From a virus (Duplodnaviria > Caudoviricetes), in IMG/VR virus record IMGVR_UViG_2814123203_000002, positions 1-64,000 of that record: a DNA stretch of 64,000 nucleotides, one strand, 5' to 3'. Every line of letters begins with the position of its first letter. Within the stretch, counting starts at the first letter, position 1. Position numbers and translations under genes: made by a program. The notes below the pieces were generated by a model. It saw nothing but the letters and a program-made list of their open reading frames with translations. It was not told the DNA's origin and did no database searches. Shown in pieces: positions 6,245-44,413 of this stretch.

Positions 6245-7593
6245 ATGGATAACCGGATTGCTTTGCGAATTGAACTTGAAAAAGCCATAGCAGAAACTGG
6301 ATGTACGTTATCAAGTATTGCAGAATACGGCGGACTATCTATCGGTAACTTAAGTGCCAGCCTGCAACATAAGGAAAAACTTCAACCTATCACCATGAAA
6401 CAATTAGATACGTTAACAGAAGCCTTAGGCTTACCCGAAGGACATTACTATGAATATTACCTTGCTGAGGTTTTTTCTCATAACAACAAAGTTTCCATTC
6501 CCAGAATGAAATCCTTTTTAATTCGCTGTGCCCAACTGGGGAAAACCGACTTGATTATGAATGCGATCCATATCTTGGTGGAACATCCTAAGTACACCGA
6601 ACTGCTTTTTTCTGTAGCAGAGGAATTGTATTTGAATGGTCTTGTTGAAGAGTCGCTTCTTTTTTACGAAGAAATCATTCAGGAAGAAAAGTACAATCAC
6701 TCTGATCGTTTGACCATCAGTCATTATCGAATATTTAGAGCCAGTATTGGGTCAGATGCTGAAGAAAACTACAAAGCAGTGATTCTTTTGAAGACTTCCG
6801 CAAAAACCTCCCTGAAAATTTTCAGTTGGATGCTTTGTTAAAGCTATCCAAAGTTTGCCTCTCCCTTAAAAAATGGAATTTAACTGAGCAATTTGCCGAT
6901 GAATTAAGAATACTTTCTACGATCAGGTACCAAGAAGAACTGCTGCTAATGAAAGAGGGCAAAACAGAACCATTGATAACAGAACGCCCTCTTGTTGTGT
7001 ATTATGGTCAATCCTATCTAATAAAAAGTATTGCCCTATTTAAACAAGGTCATTATGAGAGAGCTAAGCAATATATAGAAGGATACGAAGATCTTAGTTG
7101 GTTTGAGATTTTAGATGAACAAGGTAAGAAAGAAGTAGACAAGTTTCGTTTGTGGGCAAAAGCGAATAAATATAGTGTAGAACTACTTTTAGGAAATGTC
7201 AGCGTGCTTGATGAGTATACAAATTATCTTACCGAACACCCTAACGAAATTTCCCTTGGTCTGCTGGTGATTATACAATCTGCAAATGCATATGGATTTA
7301 GCATAGATCATATCTTAGAACGATTCCCTGAGCCTTCGCAAGAGGATAATAATGTTGTGAAGATTGAACGATATTTTAGATTTCATTACCAGAAATCGAT
7401 TTATATGTTTAATCAGCAACGTTTTGCAGAAGGGCTAGAAAGTATTTTATACTGTCTGTCTTTGGCTATTTCTAACAAGGAATATTTTGAAACTGTATTA
7501 TGTACAGCACAGTTTCAGCATTATCTGAACTATGCTTCGGATTCCCAGAAAGAACAATTCGCGAATATCATGAAAGAGGTGTTGAAAAGGTGA
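6245..7593 (+). pseudogene. HTH-TPR RRNPP-type receptor split by a 1-nt frameshift
   Basis: ORFs 6245..6841 and 6826..7593 join (VILFEDFRKNLPENFQLDALL) if one T is added to the T-run at 6786-6789; real mutation or sequencing error. Confidence 0.75.
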
Positions 7594-7727
7594 AAATTAA
7601 GAATTGGATTCTATGTATTGCAATAGCGATTACGTTGATGAGTGGATCTGCTTTTAGTGCAACGACCCAAAAAGCAGAAACGAAAAATCCTGTTATGGTT
7701 TTTATTGAACATGGAGCTGATGATTAA
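7590..7727 (+). CDS. 45-aa quorum-sensing pro-peptide
   Basis: MKIKNWILCIAIAITLMSGSAFSA signal peptide plus C-terminal ...VFIEHGADD; GTG overlaps the receptor stop. Confidence 0.75.
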   Translation: MKIKNWILCIAIAITLMSGSAFSATTQKAETKNPVMVFIEHGADD

Positions 7728-8066: not shown

Positions 8067-8097
8067 CCTTTTTACATCATATTGACTTTCAAAACTC

Positions 8098-8127
8098 TTG
8101 TACCACATCCAAAAGATGTGCTATAAT
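8098..8127 (+). promoter_or_regulatory. SigA-type promoter for repeat-mimic RNA 2
   Basis: TTGTAC-N18-TATAAT with TGc extension; CACATC-N5-GATGTG palindrome in the spacer. Confidence 0.7.
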
Positions 8128-8133
8128 TCAATT

Positions 8134-8167
8134 GTCGCACCCCACTTGGTGGTGCGTGGTTTGAAAT
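8134..8167 (+). CRISPR. Solitary type I-C-like CRISPR repeat
   Basis: GTCGCACCCCACTTGGTGGTGCGTGGTTTGAAAT matches the I-C pattern GTCGCAC...GGTGCGTGGATTGAAAT; starts at the predicted +1. Confidence 0.8.
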
Positions 8168-8181
8168 AAATTTACTTTTAT

Positions 8182-8219
8182 GAGGAAACCTATCTTTATA
8201 AAGATAGGTTTCCTCTTTT
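8182..8219 (+). terminator. Terminator of repeat-mimic RNA 2
   Basis: Perfect 16-bp stem GAGGAAACCTATCTTT/AAAGATAGGTTTCCTC followed by TTTT. Confidence 0.8.
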
Positions 8220-8224
8220 AAAGA

Positions 8225-8513
8225 ACCCCACCTAAATGGTAGGGTTTTTGCTTACCATAGATGGTTTATATCGTAGGTCTGAGACTCCTCGCCGTCCCAT
8301 TCACTTATGTATTCCTCTATTGTATTGCGCACGTGTTCCCCTGCTTTTCGATACGACATCCCAATATGATCAGCTTCTCCATACACATGGCTCTTGAGGC
8401 AGCCCATATCAAAAAATATGTGCGGCTTGTCAAGTACCACTAAACAGCAAGCCTTGATGATTAGTGTGGGTAAATGCGTACCCTTCTTGATTTACATAAA
8501 GAATAGTCCCCCA
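8225..8513. repeat. Segment with a diverged, internally deleted copy at 63358-63509
   Basis: Shared hairpin, TTGCTTACCATAGATGGTTT, AAAAAATATGTGCG, CCTTGATGATTAGTGTGGGTA and TACATAAAGAATAGT blocks in the same order. Confidence 0.85.
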
Positions 8514-8550: not shown

Positions 8551-8820
8551 TTATACTTTACTTTCCTCCTTAAGATTCAAATATCTTTTATGGTAGTATT
8601 GCTGACATTCTGAGCAATACTCAGGGTTTTCTTTGTTCCCGTGTGGGGATGATGGAAAGTCCATCTGTCCGCCGCATTGAGGACATAACCCTTTCTCTGT
8701 ACGTTCTTCTCTAATTCTCCTTTGCCTGGTTCTCTCAAAGCACTTTCGAGAGCAGTCTACTGCCCGAGGATGTTTGGAAACAAAAGATTTTTGACAATCG
8801 GGAGCTATACACTTTTTCAT
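8551..8820 (-). CDS. Small double zinc-finger-like protein
   Basis: Four Cys pairs: CIAPDC, CSRKC, CPQC, CSEC. Confidence 0.65.
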   Translation of the reverse strand: MKKCIAPDCQKSFVSKHPRAVDCSRKCFERTRQRRIREERTEKGLCPQCGGQMDFPSSPHGNKENPEYCSECQQYYHKRYLNLKEESKV

Positions 8821-9087
8821 TCATCTCAATCCTTCTATGTCCATGATAAAATATGAGGTCATCTCATCCACATATTTCTTTTTTGATGTTTGTATTCGGC
8901 GGGAAGCTCCATACATTTTCTTTCCTTCACAATATACATTGGAGGATGAGGATATTATTATTTCGCTTATTTCACTTGACATATCCCAAGTGAAATAATA
9001 GTATCTTCCATATGTACCGCCTGAGACCCTGTCATACAATTCCGCTGCCCTTTCTTGAAATTCTTTTATTAGCTCCATTTCAATCAC
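8821..9087 (-). CDS. Hypothetical protein, 88 aa
   Basis: Translationally coupled to the downstream ORF; GAGGTG at the start region. Confidence 0.55.
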   Translation of the reverse strand: MIEMELIKEFQERAAELYDRVSGGTYGRYYYFTWDMSSEISEIIISSSSNVYCEGKKMYGASRRIQTSKKKYVDEMTSYFIMDIEGLR

Positions 9088-9132: not shown

Positions 9133-9213
9133 GTTGTAATTTAGTACCTATTAAGGAATTGAAACATGGATTTGTATTTTATCTGTTATGAAATACCTAT
9201 AAGGAATTGAAAC
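9133..9213 (+). CRISPR. Mini array: two type I-B-like repeats with a 19-nt spacer
   Basis: GTTGTAATTTAGTACCTATTAAGGAATTGAAAC (9133-9165) and GTTATGAAATACCTATAAGGAATTGAAAC (9185-9213) fit the GTTT...TACCTATAAGGAATTGAAAC family of Bacillota. Confidence 0.8.
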
Positions 9214-9266
9214 AACTAATCCAATGTTTCTTTAGAAGAACCCATTATTTTTTGGGGCGACCGCCC

Positions 9267-9770
9267 TCAGAGCCATTCTACGTCGTACCGTTCTTCGACG
9301 CGATCAATCACTTCGGATGTCTTTTCCTCTATGATTTCATCAAGTGCGATTTCTTCCCATTTTAAAATAATTTCTTCTGCTTTTTCGGGCAACAACTCGG
9401 AAAACGTTGCCCACTTGTACAGATTATCTTCGATATATCCGTCGTAACGCCCTTCGGCGTTTTTACGTAAGATCTCCCTGTATTCCTCCAAAAGGGATGA
9501 ATCTCCGTCTAGTTCGTTTTTAAGTTCGTCGTCCATATGCAAATGGTCGATGGGGTAGAACCATTTTTGCGTTGTAATCCCAATAATGTTCTCTCCCTCT
9601 AGCCAGTTGTTATGGCCCGCGAAAACCTCGGTGAAGAACTCTGTTGCTTCTTCACCATTGTGCCTAGCGTAAAGTTGGACCTCGCCACCGCGTTTTCTGT
9701 ACTCAGCGGCTTTCTTAATACACTTTTCTACCGCTATTTTACACTTTTCTAAATCAATTTTAATTTTCAT
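9267..9770 (-). CDS. Acidic hypothetical protein, 167 aa (anti-CRISPR candidate)
   Basis: AGGAGG RBS, own promoter, D/E-rich C-terminal half; function inferred from context only. Confidence 0.6.
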   Translation of the reverse strand: MKIKIDLEKCKIAVEKCIKKAAEYRKRGGEVQLYARHNGEEATEFFTEVFAGHNNWLEGENIIGITTQKWFYPIDHLHMDDELKNELDGDSSLLEEYREILRKNAEGRYDGYIEDNLYKWATFSELLPEKAEEIILKWEEIALDEIIEEKTSEVIDRVEERYDVEWL

Positions 9771-9826
9771 ATATACATTACCTCCTGAATTTAATTTTAT
9801 TTTCCATTTCTTTCTTACTGTTACTT

Positions 9827-9877
9827 ATAAATCTACACGAACGTGAAGATTTTGTCAACACGTTCGTGTAGATTTAT
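9827..9877. promoter_or_regulatory. Perfect 19-bp inverted repeat enclosing a minus-strand promoter
   Basis: ATAAATCTACACGAACGTG-N13-CACGTTCGTGTAGATTTAT; minus-strand TTGACA (9858-9853)-N17-TAGATT (9835-9830). Confidence 0.85.
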
Positions 9878-9915
9878 TTGAATTTATTTCGTAGAATAGG
9901 TATGAGGTGGTAATT

Positions 9916-10128
9916 ATGCTGAGCTTTGATCCTCTACGTGAGTGGTTTAACAAAACGGGAAGACAACGCACTGATATGTATATAGACTGCGGATTCGCTC
10001 CGCAAACAGTCGCGAAAGTATGGGGAGATCGGTTTCCGATACGAACCGATGTGATAGAGAAAATCTGCGAAACATATGGCCTGCGGATCGAGCAGGTACT
10101 TGTTTGGAAAAACGAGGAGGATAAGTAG
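9916..10128 (+). CDS. Small Cro/C1-type HTH protein
   Basis: MLSFDPL...GFAPQTVAKV...TDVIEKICETYGLRIEQVL is an HTH_26-like pattern; GAGGTG RBS. Confidence 0.8.
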   Translation: MLSFDPLREWFNKTGRQRTDMYIDCGFAPQTVAKVWGDRFPIRTDVIEKICETYGLRIEQVLVWKNEEDK

Positions 10129-10130
10129 AA

Positions 10131-10757
10131 ATGGATATTCAAATGTTTGACCCGAAAAAGGGAGTGCCAGCCACGGAGAATGAGCGAACCTATTTCCGGA
10201 ATGGCTACGGAGTGGGGATCGGTGTAATCTATCTGCCGTCGAAAAACATGCCGGAGATGTTTACGCAAAATTGGCCGACAATGGAGGTGCGTGGCGAAAC
10301 GGTGCATGCTGCGCCAGAATTTCGCGTTTTTGAAACGAAGAAATCGGCCGTGAGAATATTCCAGTACAATCCGGTACAGTTCCACTTAAAAGAACACGTT
10401 TTTAACGGCATCCAACTGTTCCATTTGCTTATTGCGTGCTTAGACGGTAATCCCGAACCATTTTCCGGGGAAACAACGCTGAATCCAGGTGATCCGTTGG
10501 CAGCTCGTTTTTTAGAAGTTATGGCGGAATCTCCGTACTTCGTGATTAATACATATGCCAAATTTGAGTACTTCCAAACGTTCTTTGCGGACAACCCGTT
10601 CAAAGAGGCGGTAAGATCGTTCCAATACACTGATAAGCCGCAGCCTAAGGATGTTTTTATGTGGGCAAAGGCGGAGTTAGAACGAACGGTACCGTTTAAG
10701 TATCGGGAGTTTGACTGGGAACCGCCCCAGAAGACGTTACGTGTTAATTTCGTGTAA
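10131..10757 (+). CDS. Hypothetical protein, 208 aa
   Basis: GAGGAGG RBS; coupled to the HTH gene. Confidence 0.65.
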   Translation: MDIQMFDPKKGVPATENERTYFRNGYGVGIGVIYLPSKNMPEMFTQNWPTMEVRGETVHAAPEFRVFETKKSAVRIFQYNPVQFHLKEHVFNGIQLFHLLIACLDGNPEPFSGETTLNPGDPLAARFLEVMAESPYFVINTYAKFEYFQTFFADNPFKEAVRSFQYTDKPQPKDVFMWAKAELERTVPFKYREFDWEPPQKTLRVNFV

Positions 10758-12046: not shown

Positions 12047-12693
12047 TTAATCTCTAAACCACCAAATTGAATTTGAAAAAATAAAATCAACTACTTCATA
12101 CCTGTCTTCCTCATATTGTTCTAAATCTTCTTTGTCAAGATAACAAGGTGGATTAAATCCATTTGGATTTTCTGATTTTATCAGCACATTGCCACCATCT
12201 AAATATTTAGTTATTATTGCTGGTTGTTCTTTCCAAAATATTTTTCGATTTTCAATTTCATTGAGGAAATCCATAGAAAAGAAATTGATAGGAAAACCTT
12301 CTAATTTATAGATAATACTTCTTGCTTCATTCAAACAATAATCTAATGTATTTCCTAAAACATTAAAGAATTTTTCACCGTTTCTAGTAATATAACAGTT
12401 ACATGTTTCTCCTACTTCCGTCTCATCCCATTTCGTTTTAATGTAATTAGTTTCGTCTATTACAATCCCCATCTGACTACATGTCCACTAAATTGTATTA
12501 AATTCTCATATACTGGAGTCTCATTTCTAGGACAACACCAATAGCAATTTTCTCCCCATTTTCCACCGATACTATGGTTATATCCTTCTAGCCGATATAC
12601 TTTCATTGGGGCACCTTTAACAACCACATCCCAATCTAAAGGATGAAGTTTCGATAAATCTGTTTCTTTGTTGATTAATTTGATTTCTGTCAT
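12047..12693 (-). pseudogene. Hypothetical phage gene split by a frameshift
   Basis: ORFs 12460..12693 and 12047..12472 fuse (VRWGIVIDET) if one base is added to the G-run near 12468. Confidence 0.6.
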
Positions 12694-24954: not shown

Positions 24955-25342
24955 TTCTACCTCCTTTTATAGACCATCTTTAATTCTCTATGCTTCGAAT
25001 AAACTCATTGATATCTTTATATCTTTTAGATTCTTCTATAAAATTAACATCGTCACTGATGACACAAACATATGGCTCTTTTGTTTTTTGTCGGATTATT
25101 TTATGCACTTTTTTATGAGGATTCAGTTCAACTTTTATTTTTCCCATTCCAACAAGGCCACTATCTGTATAATAGATATAATTCAACATTACTGCTCCTT
25201 AGTTCTGGTTGTTATTCATATTACTATTATCTATAAAATAAGGATTTTATTTATTTTTGATGACTACTTTTTGTTTAAAAAATCGGTATTTTTTATCTAT
25301 TATAGATTGCTATAATTTCAATGTTTTGAAGTCCAAAAAACT

Positions 25343-26269
25343 CTAGAATACGTACTCATCAAGAGCACCCGCCTCATGTGAGTCATCAATTATTCGTCTT
25401 CCCCTTGCATAGTCTATATCTAGATACATACGACTAGCACTATACCATGAGCCGCGATCTACCACCTCGGCTGCGTATGCTAGTGGTATTGACGGATGGG
25501 TATACCCAACGATATCCCCTTCACGTATTTCCGTAGGATTCGGCACGCTCAGATACTCCGCAGGCACCTTCAGCCCCAGCGCACGCCTGAACGCAATTGC
25601 CCGACCGATATGCGAATTAAAGACGTCGCCGGGTGCGCATTTTGCGATACCTCTTTTGTAAATCTCCTTTTTAGCGGCACTGCGAAGCAGGCACACTACC
25701 GTTTTCTTTTTGCGATTAACAATATACTCTGCGGATGAAGCGCCTGTGCCATTTATTTTATAAAACGAACTGAGGTTGCTCGTAATACGTCTAATAAAAT
25801 CTTCAAGCCCCTTGAGATCAGCCTTCGCTTTTTCCACGATCTCATCACGGATTTCTTGTGGCGACTTCTCGGTTTGCTGCTTCGGTCCTTCCAGCTTTGA
25901 TACGCGGAGGGCCAACGTTGCCAGTTCGCCTGTAAGTCGTTCCATTTCGCTCTTGATGGCGGAGATTTCGTCGGGTTCTTCGGATTCGTCGATTGGCTCA
26001 AGGACTACGTATTCACTACTCCAGAGAGTGTACAACCGCCCCTCCTCGTCCTCGTCCTCGTCGCCGATACGCCTACACAAGACACCATTAGCACAAGTTT
26101 TAATAACTTCAAACTCATCCCCATTCTCGTAGTAACGCCCCCAGTACGGCTCCGCATCAACTGCCCGAATCTTTTCTCCTACCTTAGCATCTCGTTTAAC
26201 CTCACGGTATTTTACATTTCCCATACCCGATTCCTCCCTTGATTTTGGTATAGACTTGCGATATCGCAA
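25343..26269 (-). CDS. Hypothetical phage protein
   Basis: Long ORF with GIAKCAPGDVFNSHIGRAIA motif, also seen in 30543..31040. Confidence 0.6.
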   Translation of the reverse strand: MRYRKSIPKSREESGMGNVKYREVKRDAKVGEKIRAVDAEPYWGRYYENGDEFEVIKTCANGVLCRRIGDEDEDEEGRLYTLWSSEYVVLEPIDESEEPDEISAIKSEMERLTGELATLALRVSKLEGPKQQTEKSPQEIRDEIVEKAKADLKGLEDFIRRITSNLSSFYKINGTGASSAEYIVNRKKKTVVCLLRSAAKKEIYKRGIAKCAPGDVFNSHIGRAIAFRRALGLKVPAEYLSVPNPTEIREGDIVGYTHPSIPLAYAAEVVDRGSWYSASRMYLDIDYARGRRIIDDSHEAGALDEYVF

Positions 26270-26633
26270 TTACCGTTCTTCCCAGTTAATTATTCGTACA
26301 CTTGTTACATATTGACAGATGTCGTCATCGTGTTCAATTTCCAACAGGTCCCCATTTGAGTCGAAAAGTTTTAGGCATTTTACATACCCCTCACCGTCTA
26401 GCTCGATGTGTTTTTTATTTTCCGGAAACCCCATATTCAGCGGCTCACCTGTCTCTAGATCGCCTACTGCGAACCGGAGAATGTCCCAACCAAGGCAATT
26501 CCCCCGAGTTGATAGATAACGACTGCCTTATACTCCCCGTGTTGCAGGACAACCTCAACAATGTGAACAGTATCTTTTGGATAAGACCACTCTCCTACGT
26601 ATGCCTCTACGGTGTGCCCGATCAACTCAACGT

Positions 26634-27101
26634 TCAATTTAACGCCCCCTTAAGCTTTCCTCTATAAAACGACCTCATATCGTCTTTCTCGATGATCGCT
26701 GGCGAATATGGGTCATTTTCTATTAGCATCCTTGCTTTCTTCCAAGGGTCTTCACTATGGGTTAAAGCTTCTAACACTTTTGCATCAAGCCGCCCATACT
26801 TTTTCCAAACTTGCTTTAATACATGTAGTCCGTTGTCATCAAAAATTGAGTCTTGAAAGCTTTTTGTATCTTCTTTAATCGGGCTCCAACCAAATTCCCT
26901 GTAATCAAGATAAAGTTTGTAGTTTACTGGGCCGTGAACCCAAGCTTCAAATTCATCATCAAACATAGGTGCCTGATAGAAAGCCAGATGCCATGCTTGT
27001 GCATAGTAACATAGTTTCTGCAATTTAAGATGACTTAAAGGCTCATTCCGTGAGTTTGCACATTTGATGAAGTACTTTGCTACCTCGTATATGGTTACCA
27101 T
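26634..27101 (-). CDS. Panacea-domain (DUF4065/SocA/GepA) antitoxin-like protein
   Basis: LKLQKLCYYAQ, FEAWVHGPV, LTHSEDPW. Confidence 0.9.
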   Translation of the reverse strand: MVTIYEVAKYFIKCANSRNEPLSHLKLQKLCYYAQAWHLAFYQAPMFDDEFEAWVHGPVNYKLYLDYREFGWSPIKEDTKSFQDSIFDDNGLHVLKQVWKKYGRLDAKVLEALTHSEDPWKKARMLIENDPYSPAIIEKDDMRSFYRGKLKGALN

Positions 27102-27412
27102 ACTTCCTCCCCTACAGGCTCACCGAAATCAATCTCCTCATGGCGGTTTCCATCATTGACACTTGCGCATAGTTCTTCGAGTCTAGGTGCCGATTTACGC
27201 CTAAGTAGCTGTAACATATCCTCGCCAGTTAACCCGATAACCACATAATCCTCACGGTTTCGCTTAAACCGGTTGCTCCAGTAAGACAGTGCCCATTTTG
27301 CAGTCCCTTCGGTGCGGTATGCAGACTTGCCCGCTGCCATACAACCACCAGTCTTTCGATTTACGATAACCCAGATATTCCAATCTTCCCCGCGTGTATA
27401 CGTAAATTTCAA
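27095..27412 (-). CDS. Chimeric protein with a MazE-like C-terminal tail
   Basis: Ends LEELCASVNDGNRHEEIDFGEPVGEEVW, like the MazE tail ...LHENIDWGEPKDKEVW; no AbrB domain. Confidence 0.65.
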   Translation of the reverse strand: MKFTYTRGEDWNIWVIVNRKTGGCMAAGKSAYRTEGTAKWALSYWSNRFKRNREDYVVIGLTGEDMLQLLRRKSAPRLEELCASVNDGNRHEEIDFGEPVGEEVW

Positions 27413-27540
27413 ATTAAGCGTCCTCCTTCCTCATATCCTCGATAACGGACTTCATATCGTTGATAATTTGCAGTTTAAGTTCGTCCCGATCAATCTTCCT
27501 TCCGTGTTCAAACAGAGTGCCTTTAGTTTATGGTCGAGAC

Positions 27541-27780
27541 TCATTCTTCGTCCTCCTCGTTTTCGTGTACAATTTCGAGTGGCTCTCCGTTCTTGCCAGC
27601 CTCGTACGCCTGTTTGATCCAGCCTTCGATGCTATATACGAAGCTTAAATTACGCTCTAACATCGCATCTTCCGGGTCCCCACTCAAGCATCCGATGTCA
27701 AAACCACCCCTTCCATCGATGTCCATTTCGAGTCTTGCGCACTCATTCCAATCTTCTCCGTGCGTAAAGGTAATTTTCAT
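27541..27780 (-). CDS. Acidic hypothetical phage protein
   Basis: MKITFTHGEDWNE start after a GGAGGAG RBS. Confidence 0.6.
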   Translation of the reverse strand: MKITFTHGEDWNECARLEMDIDGRGGFDIGCLSGDPEDAMLERNLSFVYSIEGWIKQAYEAGKNGEPLEIVHENEEDEE

Positions 27781-27781
27781 A

Positions 27782-28171
27782 TTAAGACTCCTCCGTATAT
27801 TTTTTATATTGGTACGCTGCACGCTGGGCCTCTCTTGTACCACTAATCGGAGCCCCCACGCGCAGGGCCTCTTTGACAAAATCTTCGTCTCCGTCCCCAC
27901 ACGGTAGGCCTTGCGTAAACTGATACCAATGTACAAGCTCGTGTAATAAAGCATCGAGAACACCAGATCTCGGCATTTTTGCGTTTACCTTCCTACTGAA
28001 CCGGAGCACAATCGTGCCGTCATTGTAGGCGGTGAAATAACCAATGCGACGTTTCCAGTCTCGGTTAACCAGTTCGATTTTCCCCGTATACTCGGTCGAC
28101 CAGTGTTTACGGCACAGTCTATTTGCATGATCGTAAAGCTCTTGGAGAGTCATATCGCCAGTGTCCGGCAT
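27782..28171 (-). CDS. SprT-like zinc metalloprotease domain protein
   Basis: LLHELVHW (HExxH). Confidence 0.75.
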   Translation of the reverse strand: MPDTGDMTLQELYDHANRLCRKHWSTEYTGKIELVNRDWKRRIGYFTAYNDGTIVLRFSRKVNAKMPRSGVLDALLHELVHWYQFTQGLPCGDGDEDFVKEALRVGAPISGTREAQRAAYQYKKYTEES

Positions 28172-28606
28172 CTATTCGGCCTCCCAACGGCCAATTCTAG
28201 TTAAGTCTTTCGTAAAACGTTCCGTATCCATTGCAATTGACGCTATATGCGTAATACCAAAGCTACTACGAAGTAAATGTTTTCCTTTCAACCCGATCAC
28301 TGACCCGATATGATAGATATAACCACTATTCTTCCAATCACCCTCGCCTACGAGCATCAGCCCATATAATTTAAAATGATCACGCAAACGAAAGATGAAT
28401 TCATCCCAGTCCTTTTCGGCAAAGGACACCCTTCCGTTTTTGTACCAAGCCACCGCTCTATAATCTGTACTATCTTCCGGGTCAGATGTGCATGGGCGTT
28501 CTCCGGTTTCACGCTCCAATTGCTGCTCGTAAGTCAGCAAGGCTTCATGATAGATAGTAACGTGATAGTAGTATCCCTTATCTTCTGTTCTAGGATTGTA
28601 TTTCAC
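28172..28606 (-). CDS. Hypothetical phage protein
   Basis: GGAGG RBS, operon context. Confidence 0.55.
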   Translation of the reverse strand: MKYNPRTEDKGYYYHVTIYHEALLTYEQQLERETGERPCTSDPEDSTDYRAVAWYKNGRVSFAEKDWDEFIFRLRDHFKLYGLMLVGEGDWKNSGYIYHIGSVIGLKGKHLLRSSFGITHIASIAMDTERFTKDLTRIGRWEAE

Positions 28607-29362
28607 TCTCTTCCGCCTCCTCCCTACCTGTCCGCAATCATCATGGCTACATTAGCAACGTCGGCAGCTTGATATATAGACCAAGGATCATCACTTTTAG
28701 CAACACTATCCCATATAATGGCATTCTGTAATTTACGGCACTCTTCTACCAGCCTCACAAAGAGAGAATCTACTGAGAGATCTATCCAGCCGACTTTATA
28801 ATCATTTTTCCGACGTAATTTAATCTCCTCATTAAATCCAGTAGATTTCATTGCACACCTCCTCCTCATTGTGGTATAGTTGGTGTGATAATGTTTAAAT
28901 TCGAACGGTTGTCGGCCAGGACAGCCGTTCTATTTTTGTGGGCTTCTTCGAGTTCTTTTTCAAGTTGTTCGATTTCGCCACAATTACCCAATCCCAAGTG
29001 CCATCTTTTTCATGGTGTTTTTTGTTGCGACGATACATGAATTTGAGCTCTTCGATACGCTGGCGAGCTGATTTAAAGTCGTACATGTTGTTCACCTCCT
29101 TCTAATATTTCTTCCGTAATGTAAGTTTCATATATGTGTTCCACCTTAGTGCTGCTGTTCGTTTTGGAAGCTATTTCTGCTAGAATATCAATGGCCGCAT
29201 CTTCTTTATAATCTTTATCAACCTTACTCTCGCTATATGAATCCGTGTAAATTAACCATACTTTCAAACCTTCTCACCTCTTTATCAGAATTTAAAGGAT
29301 AACCACTCTCCTTTGTCGAAAGTTGGAAGTTGTAGACTACCAAATTAAAGGAGTGAATTTCA

Positions 29363-38571: not shown

Positions 38572-39075
38572 ATTTGTCCTTTGTCACCTCTAATTCTTTA
38601 AGAGTCTTATAAATATGATGAGCAGCGTTATCGGCTGCGAATTCAGCATCTCCCCACGCAAGTATCTCCCTTATTTTCAGTAAACTGTTAATAAGATGTC
38701 GTTCCCGTTTAAAACAATCTTCTAACTCTGACTGCAACTTGGTTACCTTTTCTTCAAGAGGCAAGTAGTACTCACAATAGAAGCAAAACTCATCAGTATG
38801 ACACATACAAAAATTACTCATCCTTTTTCCCTCTCTTCCCCTATCGCGCATCGTTTTTATTATGGCTTTAAGCATTACATCACAGATCCAAGATAATTTT
38901 GGTTCCTCTGACCAATAGTTCAAGAGAATCTACAACTTCTTTGATATCACTCATTTCTATTTGAAGCCTGTTCGCCTTTTCCTCCGCTGCATCGGCACGA
39001 GCTTTTTCAGTTTGGTACTTCCTCTTGAGATCTTCTATACGTAGCCATTGTTCTTCCAGTTGAGTAATAGCGGAC

Positions 39076-39486
39076 TTATGATTCATCCTCTATACCTCCT
39101 AACAAATGAGGGTGTTCATATATGTTGCCAATAACCTTATGATAACTTGACCCAAATTCTAAATCTTTCAATTTTCCAGATACGTGATGTAAAACAAATC
39201 TCCCAGAAGTAAATATAACCGAACCCACAAATTTCCGCATACCGTTGAAATGTCCTGATTCTGTATAGCCCATCTCTTCCGAAGCTATGATATCTCCCTC
39301 ATATATTTCAATTCCGTTGGTGTCATAGAGTCCGGTAAATTGATCTACTGTTTCAGAATCTACTAGCCAGTTTTCATTATCCATCCATATTACATGGTGC
39401 TCTAAAATAGCACCGTACAAATAAAAACCATACACCCATTCTCCGTTATCGATACGTTTACCCCGAAACTTGATTGGTCTACTCAT
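39076..39486 (-). CDS. YopX family protein
   Basis: RPIKFRG, QFTGLYDTNGIEIYEGDI, VIGNIYEHPHLL. Confidence 0.9.
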   Translation of the reverse strand: MSRPIKFRGKRIDNGEWVYGFYLYGAILEHHVIWMDNENWLVDSETVDQFTGLYDTNGIEIYEGDIIASEEMGYTESGHFNGMRKFVGSVIFTSGRFVLHHVSGKLKDLEFGSSYHKVIGNIYEHPHLLGGIEDES

Positions 39487-41011
39487 CAAACCCTCCAACT
39501 TTTTTCAAGACGTTCTACCCATTCGTCATCATTATTCCAACGATTTACTGCATACTTTACAGAACTAACCGTTCTAACTTGTTTACCGTCATGGAATGCA
39601 CAATTAATGTACTCGGCAATTTCTTTTAAAGGTACTTGTTCTTCGTAATCTATAGCAATTTGTTCTGCTTCAAGATACGTGTATTTATTCATCCTCTGTA
39701 CCTCCTAATCTCAGCTCAATTTCATCAACTCTAACTCTCTCATATCCCATTCATCATATTCGTAGTTTGTTTTTCGCCATAATGCTACTGAAGCTTCTAT
39801 TAGGATTCTTTCCGTTTCGCCGAAGTTTTTTGGATTTTTATTTATTTCTATCGGACGACTTTGGTATTCCAAGTGATCGCCTTTTTTAGCTAAATATTTG
39901 CTTTTCCTATACTCCTTAATGTGTTGATCAAACCGGATTCTGGCATTTTGTTTATTCAAGTAATATTCTTCTTCAATCCGAAAGCCCATCATGTTTTCCT
40001 TTGTCACCTTGTATGCTTTCACCCCTATTCATCCCTTTCCCATACTACTTCCATTTTTAACGTTCCAGCTTCAATTGCTTTTCCGATTAAAGACAGGTCA
40101 AACTCTTTTTCCGCTTTAACATCCGTTCTCACTCCTCCAATAGTCTTCGATAGCATCTTTTACATCTGCTTCATACCTTGTATTTTTACTCAGCACTTCT
40201 AGCATTTCGATGAGATAGGCATTTTAGCCTTTCCATCCATGTCCATTTGTGATTTTATTGATAAATCCATAATTTTTCCCGGTTTACCTTTTGCTAGTTT
40301 GTCATTGTCCATTCTTCACAACTCCTTTAAAGCTTCGTTCGCAAGCATCCACATACACGAAGCGTCCGCGCCAGTATATTTCAAGTTGTCGTATTGGATA
40401 GATACGATTGCTTCTAGCGCTCCTCTCAATCTCTTGTTTTCTTCCTGATATTTCAACCCTAATTCTATGGTCGATTTTAATTCTGCGTCCTTTACTTTCA
40501 ATTCCATTTTTATTGTTTTATATTCGAGTAGTATCCATAAAATTGATTCATTTATTTCATCTACCTCCATCAATCCTAACCCTTCTTTCCCACTACTCCG
40601 TCTTCAATCCAAAATCCACCATGTACTTGATGTGATCTCGTGCAGTTTTTTCGGTGACGCCCATGGTGATTCTCCGTTTCTGAAATTAGTTTTTGAACAA
40701 CATTGTTCACTTTTTCCAAAGATTCTATATGATCTGGTGTTCCTCTTTCTCTAGCTTCATCTAGCTGCTGTCCCAGGCTATTCTGTATACTATACAAAGA
40801 CTGCATAAATAAATCAGACTTCTTCTTATTTTTCATTTTTCTTTCCGCTCCATTAACAATCGTTCCAATTCCCGCCCTGCTTTGCGTAAATTGCGAAGGG
40901 TGCAGATATTAACACATAGCGTATATACGGCAATACATGCGGTAATGATTGCGAGTATGGTTACGTACATGGTAAAGACCTCCTTAAAAATAATTCGATT
41001 TAGTTGTTGTC

Positions 41012-41042
41012 TAACCACATTTCATTTAAGGCATCGATAAAT
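41012..41042. repeat. 31-bp exact direct repeat, second copy at 41850-41880
   Basis: TAACCACATTTCATTTAAGGCATCGATAAAT at both sites. Confidence 0.9.
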
Positions 41043-41543
41043 ATAAACAAACCCAAACAAAAGCTAACAAGAATAAACACTATCCCATAGGCTATATCTT
41101 TCACGCTTTCACCTATACTCTCTAACCAAATGAGAAATTAGCAGCACAAGTAATACTATATGGGCTTGTACTACATCTAATTCAATTCCGAAAATAAAGT
41201 ATACAACTACACCTATAATGGCACCCGCAACTAAAATGCTTGAATAACATAACGCAACCCAAAATAGGGATAAAAGGAATAGATTTATATCTTCTCGCAT
41301 GTCAGCTCCGATAAAAACTCATTCATATCCTGAATAACAAGCACACCGTCAAAATACGAGTCCCTATTAACAACGGATTGCCAAGATGTAGAATCGGTTT
41401 GGATTTTATGAATGCCAAGCATACCCTTAGCTTCTGCCGCAAATGTCCTAAGCATCTCCTTATCAAGCTTCCCATCGGATGCATAATGCCAAGCGATGCG
41501 ACGGCTGCCGACGCTTCCTAGTGCGATAAAATGGAACGCCATA

Positions 41544-41927
41544 TTAATGCCCCTTCCCCCAGCAAGTTTCACATTTCCAGATTTTACGTGATTCTTCACT
41601 TGTCAACCGTAAATACTCCTCATAATCAATAGAACACCCGTCTATTGTTCCTACAGTATGCGCTCCACAGATAGAACACTCTCCTGTGATAATGTCATCA
41701 TCATATACAATAAGAGGTTTTTCTCTCGGTTCAATTTCAACTTTTGCCTCATACAGACCACCGTCAATAAACATGTATTCCTCACTACCAAGATTAGGTT
41801 CCTCGTTATGTTCATGTGCCCATTTATGATCTGCGCTTTCCATTTCGTTTAACCACATTTCATTTAAGGCATCGATAAATCGCTGTATTAGATTCTGCTC
41901 ATCCTCATTATTTACAATGATCTTCAT
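41544..41927 (-). CDS. Acidic hypothetical protein with zinc-ribbon C-terminus
   Basis: CSIC and CETC pairs. Confidence 0.55.
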   Translation of the reverse strand: MKIIVNNEDEQNLIQRFIDALNEMWLNEMESADHKWAHEHNEEPNLGSEEYMFIDGGLYEAKVEIEPREKPLIVYDDDIITGECSICGAHTVGTIDGCSIDYEEYLRLTSEESRKIWKCETCWGKGH

Positions 41928-41933
41928 TCAGCC

Positions 41934-42200
41934 TCATTCCTCCTTCTCCCAGTTCCTATGTCTGTCAGCAATCATCATGGCGTAATTAGCAATATCGGCA
42001 GCTTCACGTATAACTTCATCAGGTAAATCATCCCACAAAAGGGCTTTTAATAATTCCCGATACTCTCTGGGCACCTGCCTAAGGAGATGTTCTATTAGGC
42101 AGTCTGCCCAGCCGCCTTTATGATCGTTTTCCCGTAGTTTCAGTTCCATCTGCTCCGCAAACCATTGAACTTCAGGGCGTAGTTTGATCTCTTCCTTCAT
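41934..42200 (-). CDS. MazG-like all-alpha NTP pyrophosphatase-like protein
   Basis: EAADIANYAMMIAD motif; diverged paralog at 28624..28869. Confidence 0.5.
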   Translation of the reverse strand: MKEEIKLRPEVQWFAEQMELKLRENDHKGGWADCLIEHLLRQVPREYRELLKALLWDDLPDEVIREAADIANYAMMIADRHRNWEKEE

Positions 42201-42244
42201 TCCGATTCCTCCCTATTCACAAATCGTTTTGGAGTCTCAGTTCC

Positions 42245-42448
42245 TTATCTTTCGATTAGTAACCAAAGATCAACGTCTTCCTTGTCACAAAATTCCTGTG
42301 CTTCCTTTAAGCTTTTAAAATTTGCGAACCATACTTCTTCAGGGTGAAAGACTGCGTACCGTATCGATGGAGAGTATCCCAATTCGGATTCTTCTCTTTC
42401 GCATATCTTAAAACCGTTCCGTTCTTCTATAAGTTCCATTCGTCCCAA
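42245..42448 (-). CDS. Hypothetical protein, paralog of 55175..55375
   Basis: Both begin MELIEERNGFKICERE; 58-bp near-identical DNA. Confidence 0.65.
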   Translation of the reverse strand: MGRMELIEERNGFKICEREESELGYSPSIRYAVFHPEEVWFANFKSLKEAQEFCDKEDVDLWLLIER

Positions 42449-42744
42449 GCAAGTACACGTGGAAACTCTTTTGTCCGATCTATTAATTCTTGATATGAAT
42501 AGTAATAGTAATAATCTTTACCTTCGCAATCGTCGCAACCATACAAGCAACAGGGTGCTATTTTGTTGCTTATATCTTGAGATGCTAGGCGCTTAATTGA
42601 AATCGTAACCTCATGTTCATCTCCTTCTTCCATTTTTCCTAAAAAGATATCACTCATCCCGTCTGTCTCCTCTAAGTAGCAACCAAGTGCATCATCTGCA
42701 TTCTTGGCAGCAATATATAAATTATCGATTTTATAAACATTCAT
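42427..42744 (-). CDS. Acidic hypothetical protein
   Basis: ORF in a dense cassette. Confidence 0.5.
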   Translation of the reverse strand: MNVYKIDNLYIAAKNADDALGCYLEETDGMSDIFLGKMEEGDEHEVTISIKRLASQDISNKIAPCCLYGCDDCEGKDYYYYYSYQELIDRTKEFPRVLAWDEWNL

Positions 42745-42976
42745 CCGTTCTCATCCCCTTTTGGTTTAATAGGGAGAAGGCTGGTGCCCTCTCCTTTATT
42801 CCTCCCAATAGTTTGTTGGATCAAAAACAATTTGACCTTCAAAAAATTTTTCTAAACAACCAGTGCAAAAGTGGTATTCTGTTTTTTGAGTTTGCAGGTG
42901 TAAAATTTCCTCTTTGAATTGTTCACATTGCACGCATTTTTCGTTATTTATAATTTCCATTTGTTTTATTCCTCCT

Positions 42977-43471
42977 TTAGTATCCTTGATCTTGCCTTTG
43001 GTGATTTACTTTGTTCTTTTTCATGTAAGCTTGCTCTATTTGTTCCCACCTAAAACCCAATCTCACTCCAATTTCAAAAAAGTGGGATAATGCTATTTTT
43101 AAAAATTGTTGTTTATACTTTTTGGGAATGTCGTTGATCATCCCGACGTTTTTAAAAAGCTCAATAAACAACACTGTTGTTCCACTTCTTTCCACTTCAT
43201 CCGTAATGCAGAAGTCATCTTCCGGCAAATTTAGCTGCCGGGCAATAGAGAGGAACAAGTGTAGGCAATCCACGTATTCTTCCAGCGTATTTCCTGGTTC
43301 CCGATTGTTACTCCAGTGTTTGAAACCGCGCCACTCATTTGCCAATTCCGCGATTTCCACCTGCAATGCAAGCACCATATTCGGCAAGAGATCCTGACCT
43401 TCCAACCTGTGTTCTTTTATCATTCGTTCATCTAGTTCACATTGCATTTCAAACATTTTTTCTATGTTCAC
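42977..43471 (-). CDS. Dimeric (all-alpha) dUTPase
   Basis: EIAELANEWRGFKHWS, LEEYVDCLH, KNKVNHQRQDQGY. Confidence 0.9.
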   Translation of the reverse strand: MNIEKMFEMQCELDERMIKEHRLEGQDLLPNMVLALQVEIAELANEWRGFKHWSNNREPGNTLEEYVDCLHLFLSIARQLNLPEDDFCITDEVERSGTTVLFIELFKNVGMINDIPKKYKQQFLKIALSHFFEIGVRLGFRWEQIEQAYMKKNKVNHQRQDQGY

Positions 43472-43904
43472 GATTTCTTAGCCTCCCATTGAATATCACA
43501 ATAGCGTTTGGAAACGGTGCATTATGAGGGGAGCCACCAAATTTCAATCTGCCTCTGATGAATCGGATTTCCCCCTTCATGCAATAACCATGCCACCATT
43601 TTGTGTCAGTTCGTGATGGGACTAAACATACTACGGTTGCGCCTGCGAGTGATGATTCATACGCTTTGGCAATCCATTTACCGATCTGACGGCCATACGG
43701 TGGATTCATCCAGCAGACACCTTTCCATTCCTGTTTTAGGCCGTCTTCAGATGGCGTGAAATATCGTTTGCATTTGGCGTTTTCAGGAAGCGCACATACA
43801 TCGAGTTCAAACCCAAACTCAACATTTAAGTCGTCAAAGAAATCTTGAGGCGTTTCCCACAAATCACTCTTTGATGAATAATGAACTGCCATGTTATTGC
43901 TCAC
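43449..43904 (-). CDS. Phage N6-adenine DNA methyltransferase
   Basis: WETPQ, LDVCA, MNPPYG, PSRTDT, GRLKFG. Confidence 0.92.
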   Translation of the reverse strand: MSNNMAVHYSSKSDLWETPQDFFDDLNVEFGFELDVCALPENAKCKRYFTPSEDGLKQEWKGVCWMNPPYGRQIGKWIAKAYESSLAGATVVCLVPSRTDTKWWHGYCMKGEIRFIRGRLKFGGSPHNAPFPNAIVIFNGRLRNREHRKNV

Positions 43905-44413
43905 TCTATCTCCTCCCTTGCTAACTCTTTTCGTATAGCTTGGGAAAGCCTGGGTAATAGCTTGTTCACAAAAGCTAGAGCCCATCTTGGATACCCTCTT
44001 ATATAGAACTCTGCCGCATCAGATATGGATGTTTCATCATACCAATAAGCAAATTCTACATCACTATAAAGCCAATCATGACGTTCCAACAGATCCCACT
44101 CTTGTCTAGCTTTTTCTCTGGTAAAAGTCCCATCTCTCCGACAACTTATGATGTCCTCTTTTACCCGTTTAAGAGTTTCATCCCCATCATATTCCTTTAG
44201 CTTGTAAAACAACTTAGGGAGGAAATATCCCCAATTTGTCCTTTCTTTTGCAAAAAAATGGCGAAAATCTTCACATTCACTATGATGCCATTGGTAAGCA
44301 CAATTCCCATAGTCAGTTACCGCCGCGAACATCCCTGTCTCATCTAGCAAAAATGTGCCCCATCCTTCGCCATCAATCGGGGAAATATCGTAGCGCCAAT
44401 GTTTAATTTTCAT
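43901..44413 (-). CDS. Hypothetical phage protein
   Basis: GAGGT RBS; stop overlaps the MTase start. Confidence 0.6.
   Translation of the reverse strand: MKIKHWRYDISPIDGEGWGTFLLDETGMFAAVTDYGNCAYQWHHSECEDFRHFFAKERTNWGYFLPKLFYKLKEYDGDETLKRVKEDIISCRRDGTFTREKARQEWDLLERHDWLYSDVEFAYWYDETSISDAAEFYIRGYPRWALAFVNKLLPRLSQAIRKELAREEIE

Follow-up and report, generated by a model that had tools for sequence, protein, structure and literature searches.

A putative counter-defence cassette with a presumed HTH-controlled promoter and twin CRISPR-repeat-like units in a large AT-rich phage record

Analysis of a 64,000-nt stretch of viral DNA (Duplodnaviria; Caudoviricetes; hereafter the window), which covers positions 1 to 64,000 of the IMG/VR record IMGVR_UViG_2814123203_000002, led to a compact cassette at 8.1–10.8 kb. 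There, a gene for a small helix-turn-helix (HTH) protein and its partner p208 face, across a palindromic control region, an operon of small open reading frames (ORFs; p167, p88 and p89) in which two units resembling repeats of CRISPR (short palindromic repeats that are clustered and regularly interspaced) arrays are embedded. Our tentative reading is that of a counter-defence module under HTH repression that also encodes an RNA imitating CRISPR repeats, and the target of this module would be CRISPR-Cas; this is the explanation that we prefer, at a confidence just short of even. The parent record is a virus record of 100,830 bp, classed by IMG/VR as a provirus and estimated to be 63% complete.

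The putative operator (9827..9877) is a perfect inverted repeat with arms at 9827–9845 and 9859–9877, each of 19 nt and 100% complementary to the other, separated by a 13-nt loop and carrying two CACG-NN-CGTG cores (9836–9845 and 9859–9868) on either side of the -35 hexamer. An earlier note on this DNA, made without database searches, had reported a perfect 19-bp inverted repeat around TTGACA, a near-consensus promoter and a divergent 70-aa (amino acid) HTH gene, and all three are confirmed here. TTGACA lies on the minus strand within the loop and the -10 hexamer inside the left arm; the resulting cargo promoter (TTGACA-17-TAGATT, 9858->9830, minus strand) agrees with the consensus at 10/12 positions (-35 perfect, -10 4/6), and at 11/12 in relatives with TAGAAT. 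The operator is the longest perfect inverted repeat of the 64-kb window, and 19 bp was reached in 0/20 first-order Markov simulations of 64 kb (maxima 10–16). Its core, CACGWWCGTG, is found in the 100.8-kb record only at 9836 and 9859 (expected 0.09). Taken over all its sites, the consensus promoter scan showed no enrichment (6 found vs 4.6 ± 2.1 in shuffles), and the weight therefore rests on the inverted repeat and its conservation and not on the hexamers alone. Opposite the cargo, on the plus strand, the HTH gene (9916..10128) encodes an Aca-like (anti-CRISPR-associated) repressor candidate which matches Pfam HTH_26 (E = 1.8e-7, 31.8 bits against a curated cut-off of 22 bits). A comparison of the 70-aa protein with PDB sequences at E ≤ 10 returned hemocyanins only, and no solved Aca or AcrIIA1 structure was matched.

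The same HTH gene was studied in five loci, namely the window, Paenibacillus phage Scottie (L001) and three IMG/VR proviruses (L136, L137 and L138), each of which is 100% complete according to CheckV. The gene retains 88–94% identity across the five and the control region of 140 bp is 88% conserved, while the cargo diverges beyond the conserved ribosome-binding site. In L137 and L138 the operator consists of two copies of a 14–16-bp palindrome around CACGATCGTG with TTGACA between them; the window cores are CACGAACGTG and CACGTTCGTG, and the changes from the L137/L138 form preserve the larger dyad. Counted from the promoter, the cargo comprises p167, p88 and p89 in the window, p150 (34% identical to p167), p86 and p97 in L136, a gene of the p88 family in Scottie, p132 and p215 in L137, and p93, p72 and p110 in L138. 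The protein encoded nearest the promoter is strongly acidic (net charge -10 to -20) in all loci but Scottie, where its net charge is +4. By analogy, such a fixed regulator with swapped cargo fits the pattern of anti-defence islands, and phage SV21 adds an anti-defence neighbourhood, as it carries an ArdA antirestriction gene (PF07275, E = 5.6e-29) about 400 bp from a repeat-like element. Guilt by association through the HTH protein, which the earlier note had proposed, produced the five loci, none of which has a known or homologous anti-CRISPR (acr) neighbour in Pfam, PHROG, PADLOC or PDB.

Downstream of the HTH gene, and separated from it by a 2-nt gap, lies p208 (10131..10757, plus strand), its conserved operon partner. 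It is kept behind the HTH gene in 4/5 loci at 81–93% identity and is absent in L137. The nearest homolog (89% identity) is a hypothetical protein, named by its source as from Paenibacillus larvae DSM 25430 and present on 115 contigs. No match was obtained for p208 in Pfam, PHROGs, PADLOC or PDB, and it has no ESM Atlas model. In Scottie, the p208 homolog (L001 4742-5367) is broken by a frameshift into ORFs of 127 aa and 106 aa, annotated as two hypothetical proteins. The close linkage of the two genes and the wide occurrence of p208 lend themselves to another explanation, which we rate as improbable, namely that HTH-p208 is the functional core, for example a prophage-encoded exclusion or defence system, a toxin-antitoxin-like pair or an immunity-type switch, that the operator balances it against an unrelated early operon, and that p167 is no immunity inhibitor. 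Genetic switches typically show divergent promoters with shared palindromes, as is the case here, and a ribbon-helix-helix (RHH) fusion in one p167 relative (see below) resembles antitoxin architecture. However, p208 has no match in PADLOC, Pfam or PDB, L137 retains the HTH gene and the operator without p208, and Scottie keeps the rest of the cassette intact although its p208 is split.

A further feature is absent from the earlier note. The gap of 179 bp between p167 and p88 holds two CRISPR-repeat-like units on the plus strand. Unit 1 (9136..9165) has 20/30 identity to the nearest real repeat and 20.4 bits against Rfam CRISPR-DR2, and unit 2 (9184..9213) has 25/30 identity to a real repeat, 28 bits and a 9-nt insertion in comparison with relatives; both end in AAGGAATTGAAAC. 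They are followed by a conserved tail (9214..9245, plus strand), for which pairing with the end of unit 1 and the linker is possible. Unit 2 shares its last 20 nt, without a mismatch, with the repeats of real CRISPR arrays, and a pattern scan for this 20-mer detected at least 126 genomic stretches with 66–68-bp periodicity, Paenibacillus tianmuensis included. Among 76 ORFs flanking such arrays were 14 type I-B Cas1b (14 loci) and 6 Cas6 (5 loci), as well as Cas4, Cas3, a CARF protein and TIGR02221, once each; no cas genes were seen in the examined parts of the P. tianmuensis contig around its arrays. The mimicked repeat family (...GTACCTATGAGGAATTGAAAC) is essentially type I-B.

Scottie, L136 and L138 have the element as a complete transcription unit, read in the sense direction of the repeats. 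It runs from a TTGACG (or TTCACG)-17-TATACT promoter through unit 1 and a linker of 8–9 nt (shortened by a deletion in L138) into unit 2, and then through a conserved tail of ~23 nt to a 10-pair hairpin and a T-run; the units are 92–94% conserved in these three records. The units of L136 and Scottie have 26–27/30 identity to real repeats. A small CCU-NNN-AGG hairpin is preserved in the units, and the folds predicted for the relatives' element exceed shuffles in stability (z = -3.6 and -4.3); in these folds, unit 1's end and the linker pair with the tail, so that unit 2 is enclosed. An alternative four-sequence consensus fold pairs unit 2 with the tail and shows one compensatory change, the alignment being too shallow to choose between them. 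The count per record is exactly two units, except in L137, which has none, and so they are not array fragments. An attP-like role for the units was also considered and seems unlikely, given that they have a promoter and a terminator of their own. Scanning viral contigs for close-spaced twin units returned seven loci, of which five are coincidences in coding sequence, one is this element and one is a 150-kb viral contig (L159, IMGVR_UViG_3300025838_000020). The latter carries, at ~1480–1690 and close to a promoter, a different tandem repeat of 35–36-nt units ending in GGAATTGAAAC, with no spacers, and may represent another kind of repeat-mimic RNA.

The origin of these units bears on the main competing explanation, according to which this is a general accessory (moron) cassette with cargo directed at processes other than CRISPR (for example restriction-modification, a different defence system, superinfection exclusion or host takeover), and the CRISPR-like units are a recombination passenger from a host array. 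The cargo proteins are orphan ORFs (ORFans) without a family, the sole named anti-defence neighbour is ArdA, an anti-restriction protein, the window copy of the RNA gene is degenerate, and the island is slotted between the lysis genes and a putative integrase, a classic moron site (PMC11860570). We nevertheless hold this explanation to be unlikely, if worth keeping in view, as a passive relic is hard to square with units that have their own promoter and terminator, conserved to the extent given above in three records, and that come as exactly two per record and not as array fragments with spacers.

A 4.3-Mb genome (G116), the single one found with the phage amidase as bait, is taken here as host-like; its prophage amidase has 90–93% identity to that of Scottie. 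G116 contains a type I-B locus (Cas6, Cas5b, Cas3, Cas4 and Cas1b) with flanking arrays and a type III-B locus (Cmr1, Cas10/Cmr2 and Cmr3) with no array within 10 kb, an inventory consistent with that given in the genome paper on P. larvae (PMC3944939). One of six G116 I-B spacers matches the phage amidase gene (30/34 in L138, 22/23 in L136 and 23/26 in Scottie). The genome also carries an orphan array remnant of the mimicked repeat (L143, G116:C1:2738000-2757000; ~10079–10108 and 12100–12210), in which two degenerate repeats with a 38-nt spacer are followed by an AT-rich insert of ~2.1 kb and by a full repeat standing alone (Rfam 44.3 bits). Beside this remnant lies a copy, with 71% identity, of the 5' region of p198, another gene of the window. 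G116 also bears on the idea that the twin units form a guide-producing mini-array, i.e., a Cracr-like crRNA (CRISPR RNA) mimic or an interviral weapon, whose linker or tail would aim the host Cas proteins at cas or toxin genes or at rival phages. The layout of repeat, short sequence, repeat and conserved tail speaks for it, and crRNA-like RNAs of viruses whose spacers are short (median 19 nt), I-B types included, have been described (10.1101/2024.10.29.618823). However, the relatives' linker is only 8–9 nt, the 25-nt tail has no match in G116 with up to 3 mismatches, tail seed matches in the I-B and III-B loci of G116 do not exceed chance, and no protospacer for the tail was found in 50,697 phage records except the element itself, all of which makes a guide function very improbable.

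From the anatomy of the cassette, its conservation, the identity of the mimicked repeat and the CRISPR inventory of the host-like genome, we infer HTH binding, repression, RNA expression and CRISPR inhibition in the following manner. The HTH_26 protein, presumably co-transcribed with p208, would most likely bind as dimers to the two CACG-NN-CGTG palindromes beside the -35 and over the -10 of the strong divergent promoter, and would repress that cargo promoter after an early burst, in the manner of Aca proteins. The promoter would drive exchangeable, small and mostly acidic ORFans, of which p167, p88 and p89 are the counter-defence candidates in the window; anti-CRISPR activity is a reasonable candidate function for p167. 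The small RNA, made of two type I-B repeat look-alikes 8–9 nt apart, would serve as a decoy of the Racr type, tying up Cas6 and effector subunits of the host's I-B and III-B systems. In the window, the RNA gene has been displaced to between p167 and p88, and its own promoter and half of its terminator have been lost. The proposal of new Acr candidates in the earlier note is partly borne out, and it is strengthened because the cargo varies behind a conserved regulator in the five loci, a repeat-mimic RNA gene is part of the cassette and ArdA lies near the element in SV21; the cargo proteins gave no match to Pfam, PHROGs, PADLOC or PDB entries, which counts against a strict acr/aca reading.

Several observations weigh against the counter-defence module as we propose it. 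Regarding the RNA, both window units (28 and 20.4 bits) are below the Rfam CRISPR-DR2 threshold of 37 bits, as are the 28–34 bits otherwise recorded for the repeat-like units. In the window copy, which is located between p167 and p88 and not, as in the relatives, after the cargo, the native promoter and the terminator's 3' half are missing, and its fold (z = -1.1) is no better than shuffles. The units are antisense to the cargo operon in every locus, and so the strong cargo promoter does not make the sense RNA. Regarding the host, the cas1-linked I-B arrays of G116 have a different 30-nt repeat, a long array of the mimicked repeat was not found in that genome, and the window's own virus record matches none of 7 G116 spacers beyond 13-mers. 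Regarding the proteins, the regulator may primarily serve p208, given how consistently that gene is kept behind it, and p167, p88, p89, p208, p132, p215, p93, p72, p97/p110 and p105 have no match in Pfam, PHROG, PADLOC or PDB. The module is rare as well: among 50,697 annotated phage records the HTH gene was found in one phage only (Scottie, 2 records), the cluster-mates of Scottie not being among the matches, though they were found when another region was searched. The departures from acr-aca operons described at the end belong to the same side.

A more ambitious form of the counter-defence reading can be phrased, which we regard as speculative and rather doubtful. In this form, the cassette would be the first CRISPR-escape module of P. 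larvae phages, combining a two-unit spacerless repeat RNA with a p167-family inhibitor of type I-B or III-B under an HTH_26/p208 switch. The tail would fold back on the units, and the RNA would trap Cas6 and load the I-B/III-B effectors with a dead guide. The RNA would then be a Racr variant outside the definitions used by repeat finders, and p167 would represent a new acidic family with 23 rare representatives, among them one RHH fusion.

As for transcription of the window copy, the sole sense-strand candidate upstream of the units is a promoter-like site (TTGACA-17-TAGTAT, 10/12) at 8976..9004 on the plus strand, inside p88 and antisense to it, 130–190 bp upstream of the units. It is specific to the window, with two substitutions in comparison with Scottie and L136, which have CTGACA and TAGTAC. 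The window RNA gene may be weakly expressed from this new p88-internal promoter, or it may be decaying. The TTGACA of the site is overlapped by a 12-bp perfect inverted repeat at 8967–8998 (TTATTTCACTTG / CAAGTGAAATAA).

The first cargo gene, p167 (9267..9770, minus strand), encodes an acidic ORFan of 167 aa. The earlier note had called it rich in aspartate and glutamate (D+E) and had placed ORFs of 88 and 89 aa after it, both of which proved correct: p167 has 25% D+E, a net charge of -18 and an isoelectric point of 4.64, and p88 and p89 follow on the same strand. Homologs of p88 (8821..9087) are present in Scottie (gene 21) and L136. The 89-aa protein p89 (8551..8820) is basic, shows weak zinc-ribbon matches below the Pfam cut-offs and, among the cargoes, occurs in the window only. 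The next ORF, p62 (8252..8440, minus strand), corresponds to the C-terminal portion of a protein of 105 aa that L136 and SV21 carry. PADLOC, applied to 13 proteins, gave no match. For p167, a word-indexed search returned one homolog with 85% identity, and an exhaustive HMMER search of 1.84 billion proteins returned 23 cluster representatives at E ≤ 0.001. The family members are rare and mostly singleton metagenomic proteins, one being named as from a Bacillaceae bacterium, and they have the conserved motifs GGE-QLY, HNSW-EG and WF-P. Pfam analysis of 21 members left the domain itself without a family, with only one RHH_1 and one weak DUF7006 match; the former belongs to member P0013, in which an N-terminal RHH_1 DNA-binding domain is fused. 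When the p167 profile was compared with the PDB, the best match was NusB (E = 0.011), which was judged spurious. Using tblastn, no homolog of p167 was detected in the 50,697 phage records, and its ESM Atlas model is weak (pLDDT 0.60), with no neighbour above TM 0.5. A sub-alignment of six sequences of the family led to three distant viral loci, which have no adjoining known regulators or Acrs; in one of them (L152) the p167 homolog again adjoins an amidase-holin lysis cassette. Two metagenome scans for the cassette context gave no matches. A C-terminal Y-x-VEW motif common to the p167 and p97 families was found not to be significant.

The backbone has a guanine-cytosine (GC) content of ~30% and the region of 8 to 11 kb one of 39–45%. 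The nearest relative of the backbone DNA polymerase III alpha is that of Brevibacillus phage Sundance (55.5% aa identity), and the backbone carrying the cassette is that of a large AT-rich Sundance-like phage. Scottie shares 83% identity with the island across about half of its length and SV21 shows partial similarity; a family-level DNA search found no island copies. Taken together, the similarity to Scottie and SV21, the P. larvae homolog of p208 and the Sundance-like AT-rich backbone imply that the island moves between temperate phages and prophages of P. larvae and has come into another, larger phage. A mobile accessory cassette of such phages and prophages (window 8.1–10.8 kb) is the best explanation. 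Further islands of 39–46% GC in the ~30% GC backbone are located at 25000–29000 and 39000–44000 of the window, and the part at 25.5–28.2 kb has 86–90% identity to the P. larvae phages Ash, Ley, Scottie, Halcyone and Tripp. At the island edge lies a small promoter-hairpin-terminator unit (8096..8219, plus strand), composed of a TTGTAC-18-TATAAT promoter-like site with a short internal inverted repeat, a GC hairpin, a 34-bp perfect palindrome at its end (8182–8215) and a T-run. It has 84% identity to Scottie, where it is directly downstream of p208, and in the window it occupies the island's opposite end, a placement that a circular permutation would give. At 6245–7727 (plus strand), p198 (with an HTH-like N-terminus) and p255 (with a weak TPR match) overlap in different frames and resemble one frameshifted HTH-TPR regulator, and the ORF after them has a signal-peptide-like stretch at its end. 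To judge by their sequences, they may form a quorum-sensing receptor-peptide pair (RRNPP/arbitrium-like), for which Pfam, PHROG, PADLOC and PDB gave no support.

P. larvae is a honeybee pathogen, the agent of American foulbrood, and its phages are in development as treatments. According to PMC7998209 and PMC11860570, P. larvae phages with protospacers still lyse hosts that carry matching spacers, and no anti-CRISPR is reported for them; in the former, AcrFinder found nothing in P. larvae phages, and the latter, a survey of 2025, presents their CRISPR escape as unexplained. Judged by its sequence, the cassette is a plausible and good candidate for this escape, and it offers concrete objects of study: a single small RNA gene, a repressor with its operator and some ten small proteins. 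Few inhibitors have been described for types I-B and III-B, and any addition would be useful as a tool. In addition, paired spacerless units evade both array finders and solitary-repeat finders, and similar RNA decoys may be under-counted.

Among known systems, the closest are the acr-aca operons (Aca1-10; AcrIIA1). In all Aca families tested, the core promoter contains one or two inverted repeats (PMC9410906), and AcrIIA1 is an autoregulator whose N-terminal domain is HTH_26 (PMC9410906, Table 1). The cassette shares with them a small HTH repressor (here a candidate), inverted repeats within the core of a strong promoter, downstream genes that are small, acidic and fast-changing, a location in a prophage accessory region and, for the regulator, the Pfam family of the AcrIIA1 N-terminal domain (same table). 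In contrast to them, the regulator is divergent and paired with a 208-aa partner, not the last gene of the cargo operon, the HTH protein has no detectable sequence similarity to solved Aca/AcrIIA1 structures, and the neighbourhood has no validated or homologous acr gene (Pfam, PHROG, PADLOC and PDB comparison). The acr/aca-like pair of the earlier note accordingly stands as to HTH gene, palindromes in a strong promoter and acidic cargo, and falls as to gene order.

The RNA element was compared with the Racrs, which mimic repeats, have a promoter directly upstream (within 250 bp), are strongly expressed, cluster with acr genes and divert Cas6 and Cas7 into aberrant complexes (PMC10651486). Like them, it is an intergenic, cas-less CRISPR-repeat mimic on a phage, near candidate anti-defence genes; in Scottie, L136 and L138 a promoter of its own lies directly upstream, and a host-like genome has CRISPR-Cas. 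Unlike them, it consists of two units 8–9 nt apart, so that the solitary repeat unit (SRU) definition, 'not associated with other repeats', does not describe it, though there are no cas genes or array; its conserved tail can pair back onto the units; and the live arrays of G116 carry another repeat, which by eye has only the GTTT start and the ATTGAAAC end in common with the phage units. The supplements of that paper, as far as available, list neither Paenibacillus nor Scottie. The Cracrs (10.1101/2024.10.29.618823) share the mini-array-like layout on a phage beside candidate protein inhibitors, with I-B types reported, but they have at least 9 PAM-proximal (protospacer adjacent motif) bases matching a cas or creT promoter, which was not seen in G116, and their spacers are far longer than the linker of the cassette; the main text of the preprint mentions neither Paenibacillus nor Scottie. 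The CasPR DNA-binding Acrs (10.64898/2026.02.23.707548) are likewise phage DNA-binding proteins in a Bacillota prophage facing type I-B, but they are described as combining CapR and AP2 domains, whereas the cassette protein is HTH_26 only by Pfam. The idea that the HTH protein silences host cas genes in the CasPR manner was rejected, as the operator motif is absent from the G116 cas loci and occurs in that genome only once, with 2 mismatches and far from them. Although it lies outside the membership definitions of each, the cassette appears, by analogy, to work like an acr-aca locus to which a Racr has been added.

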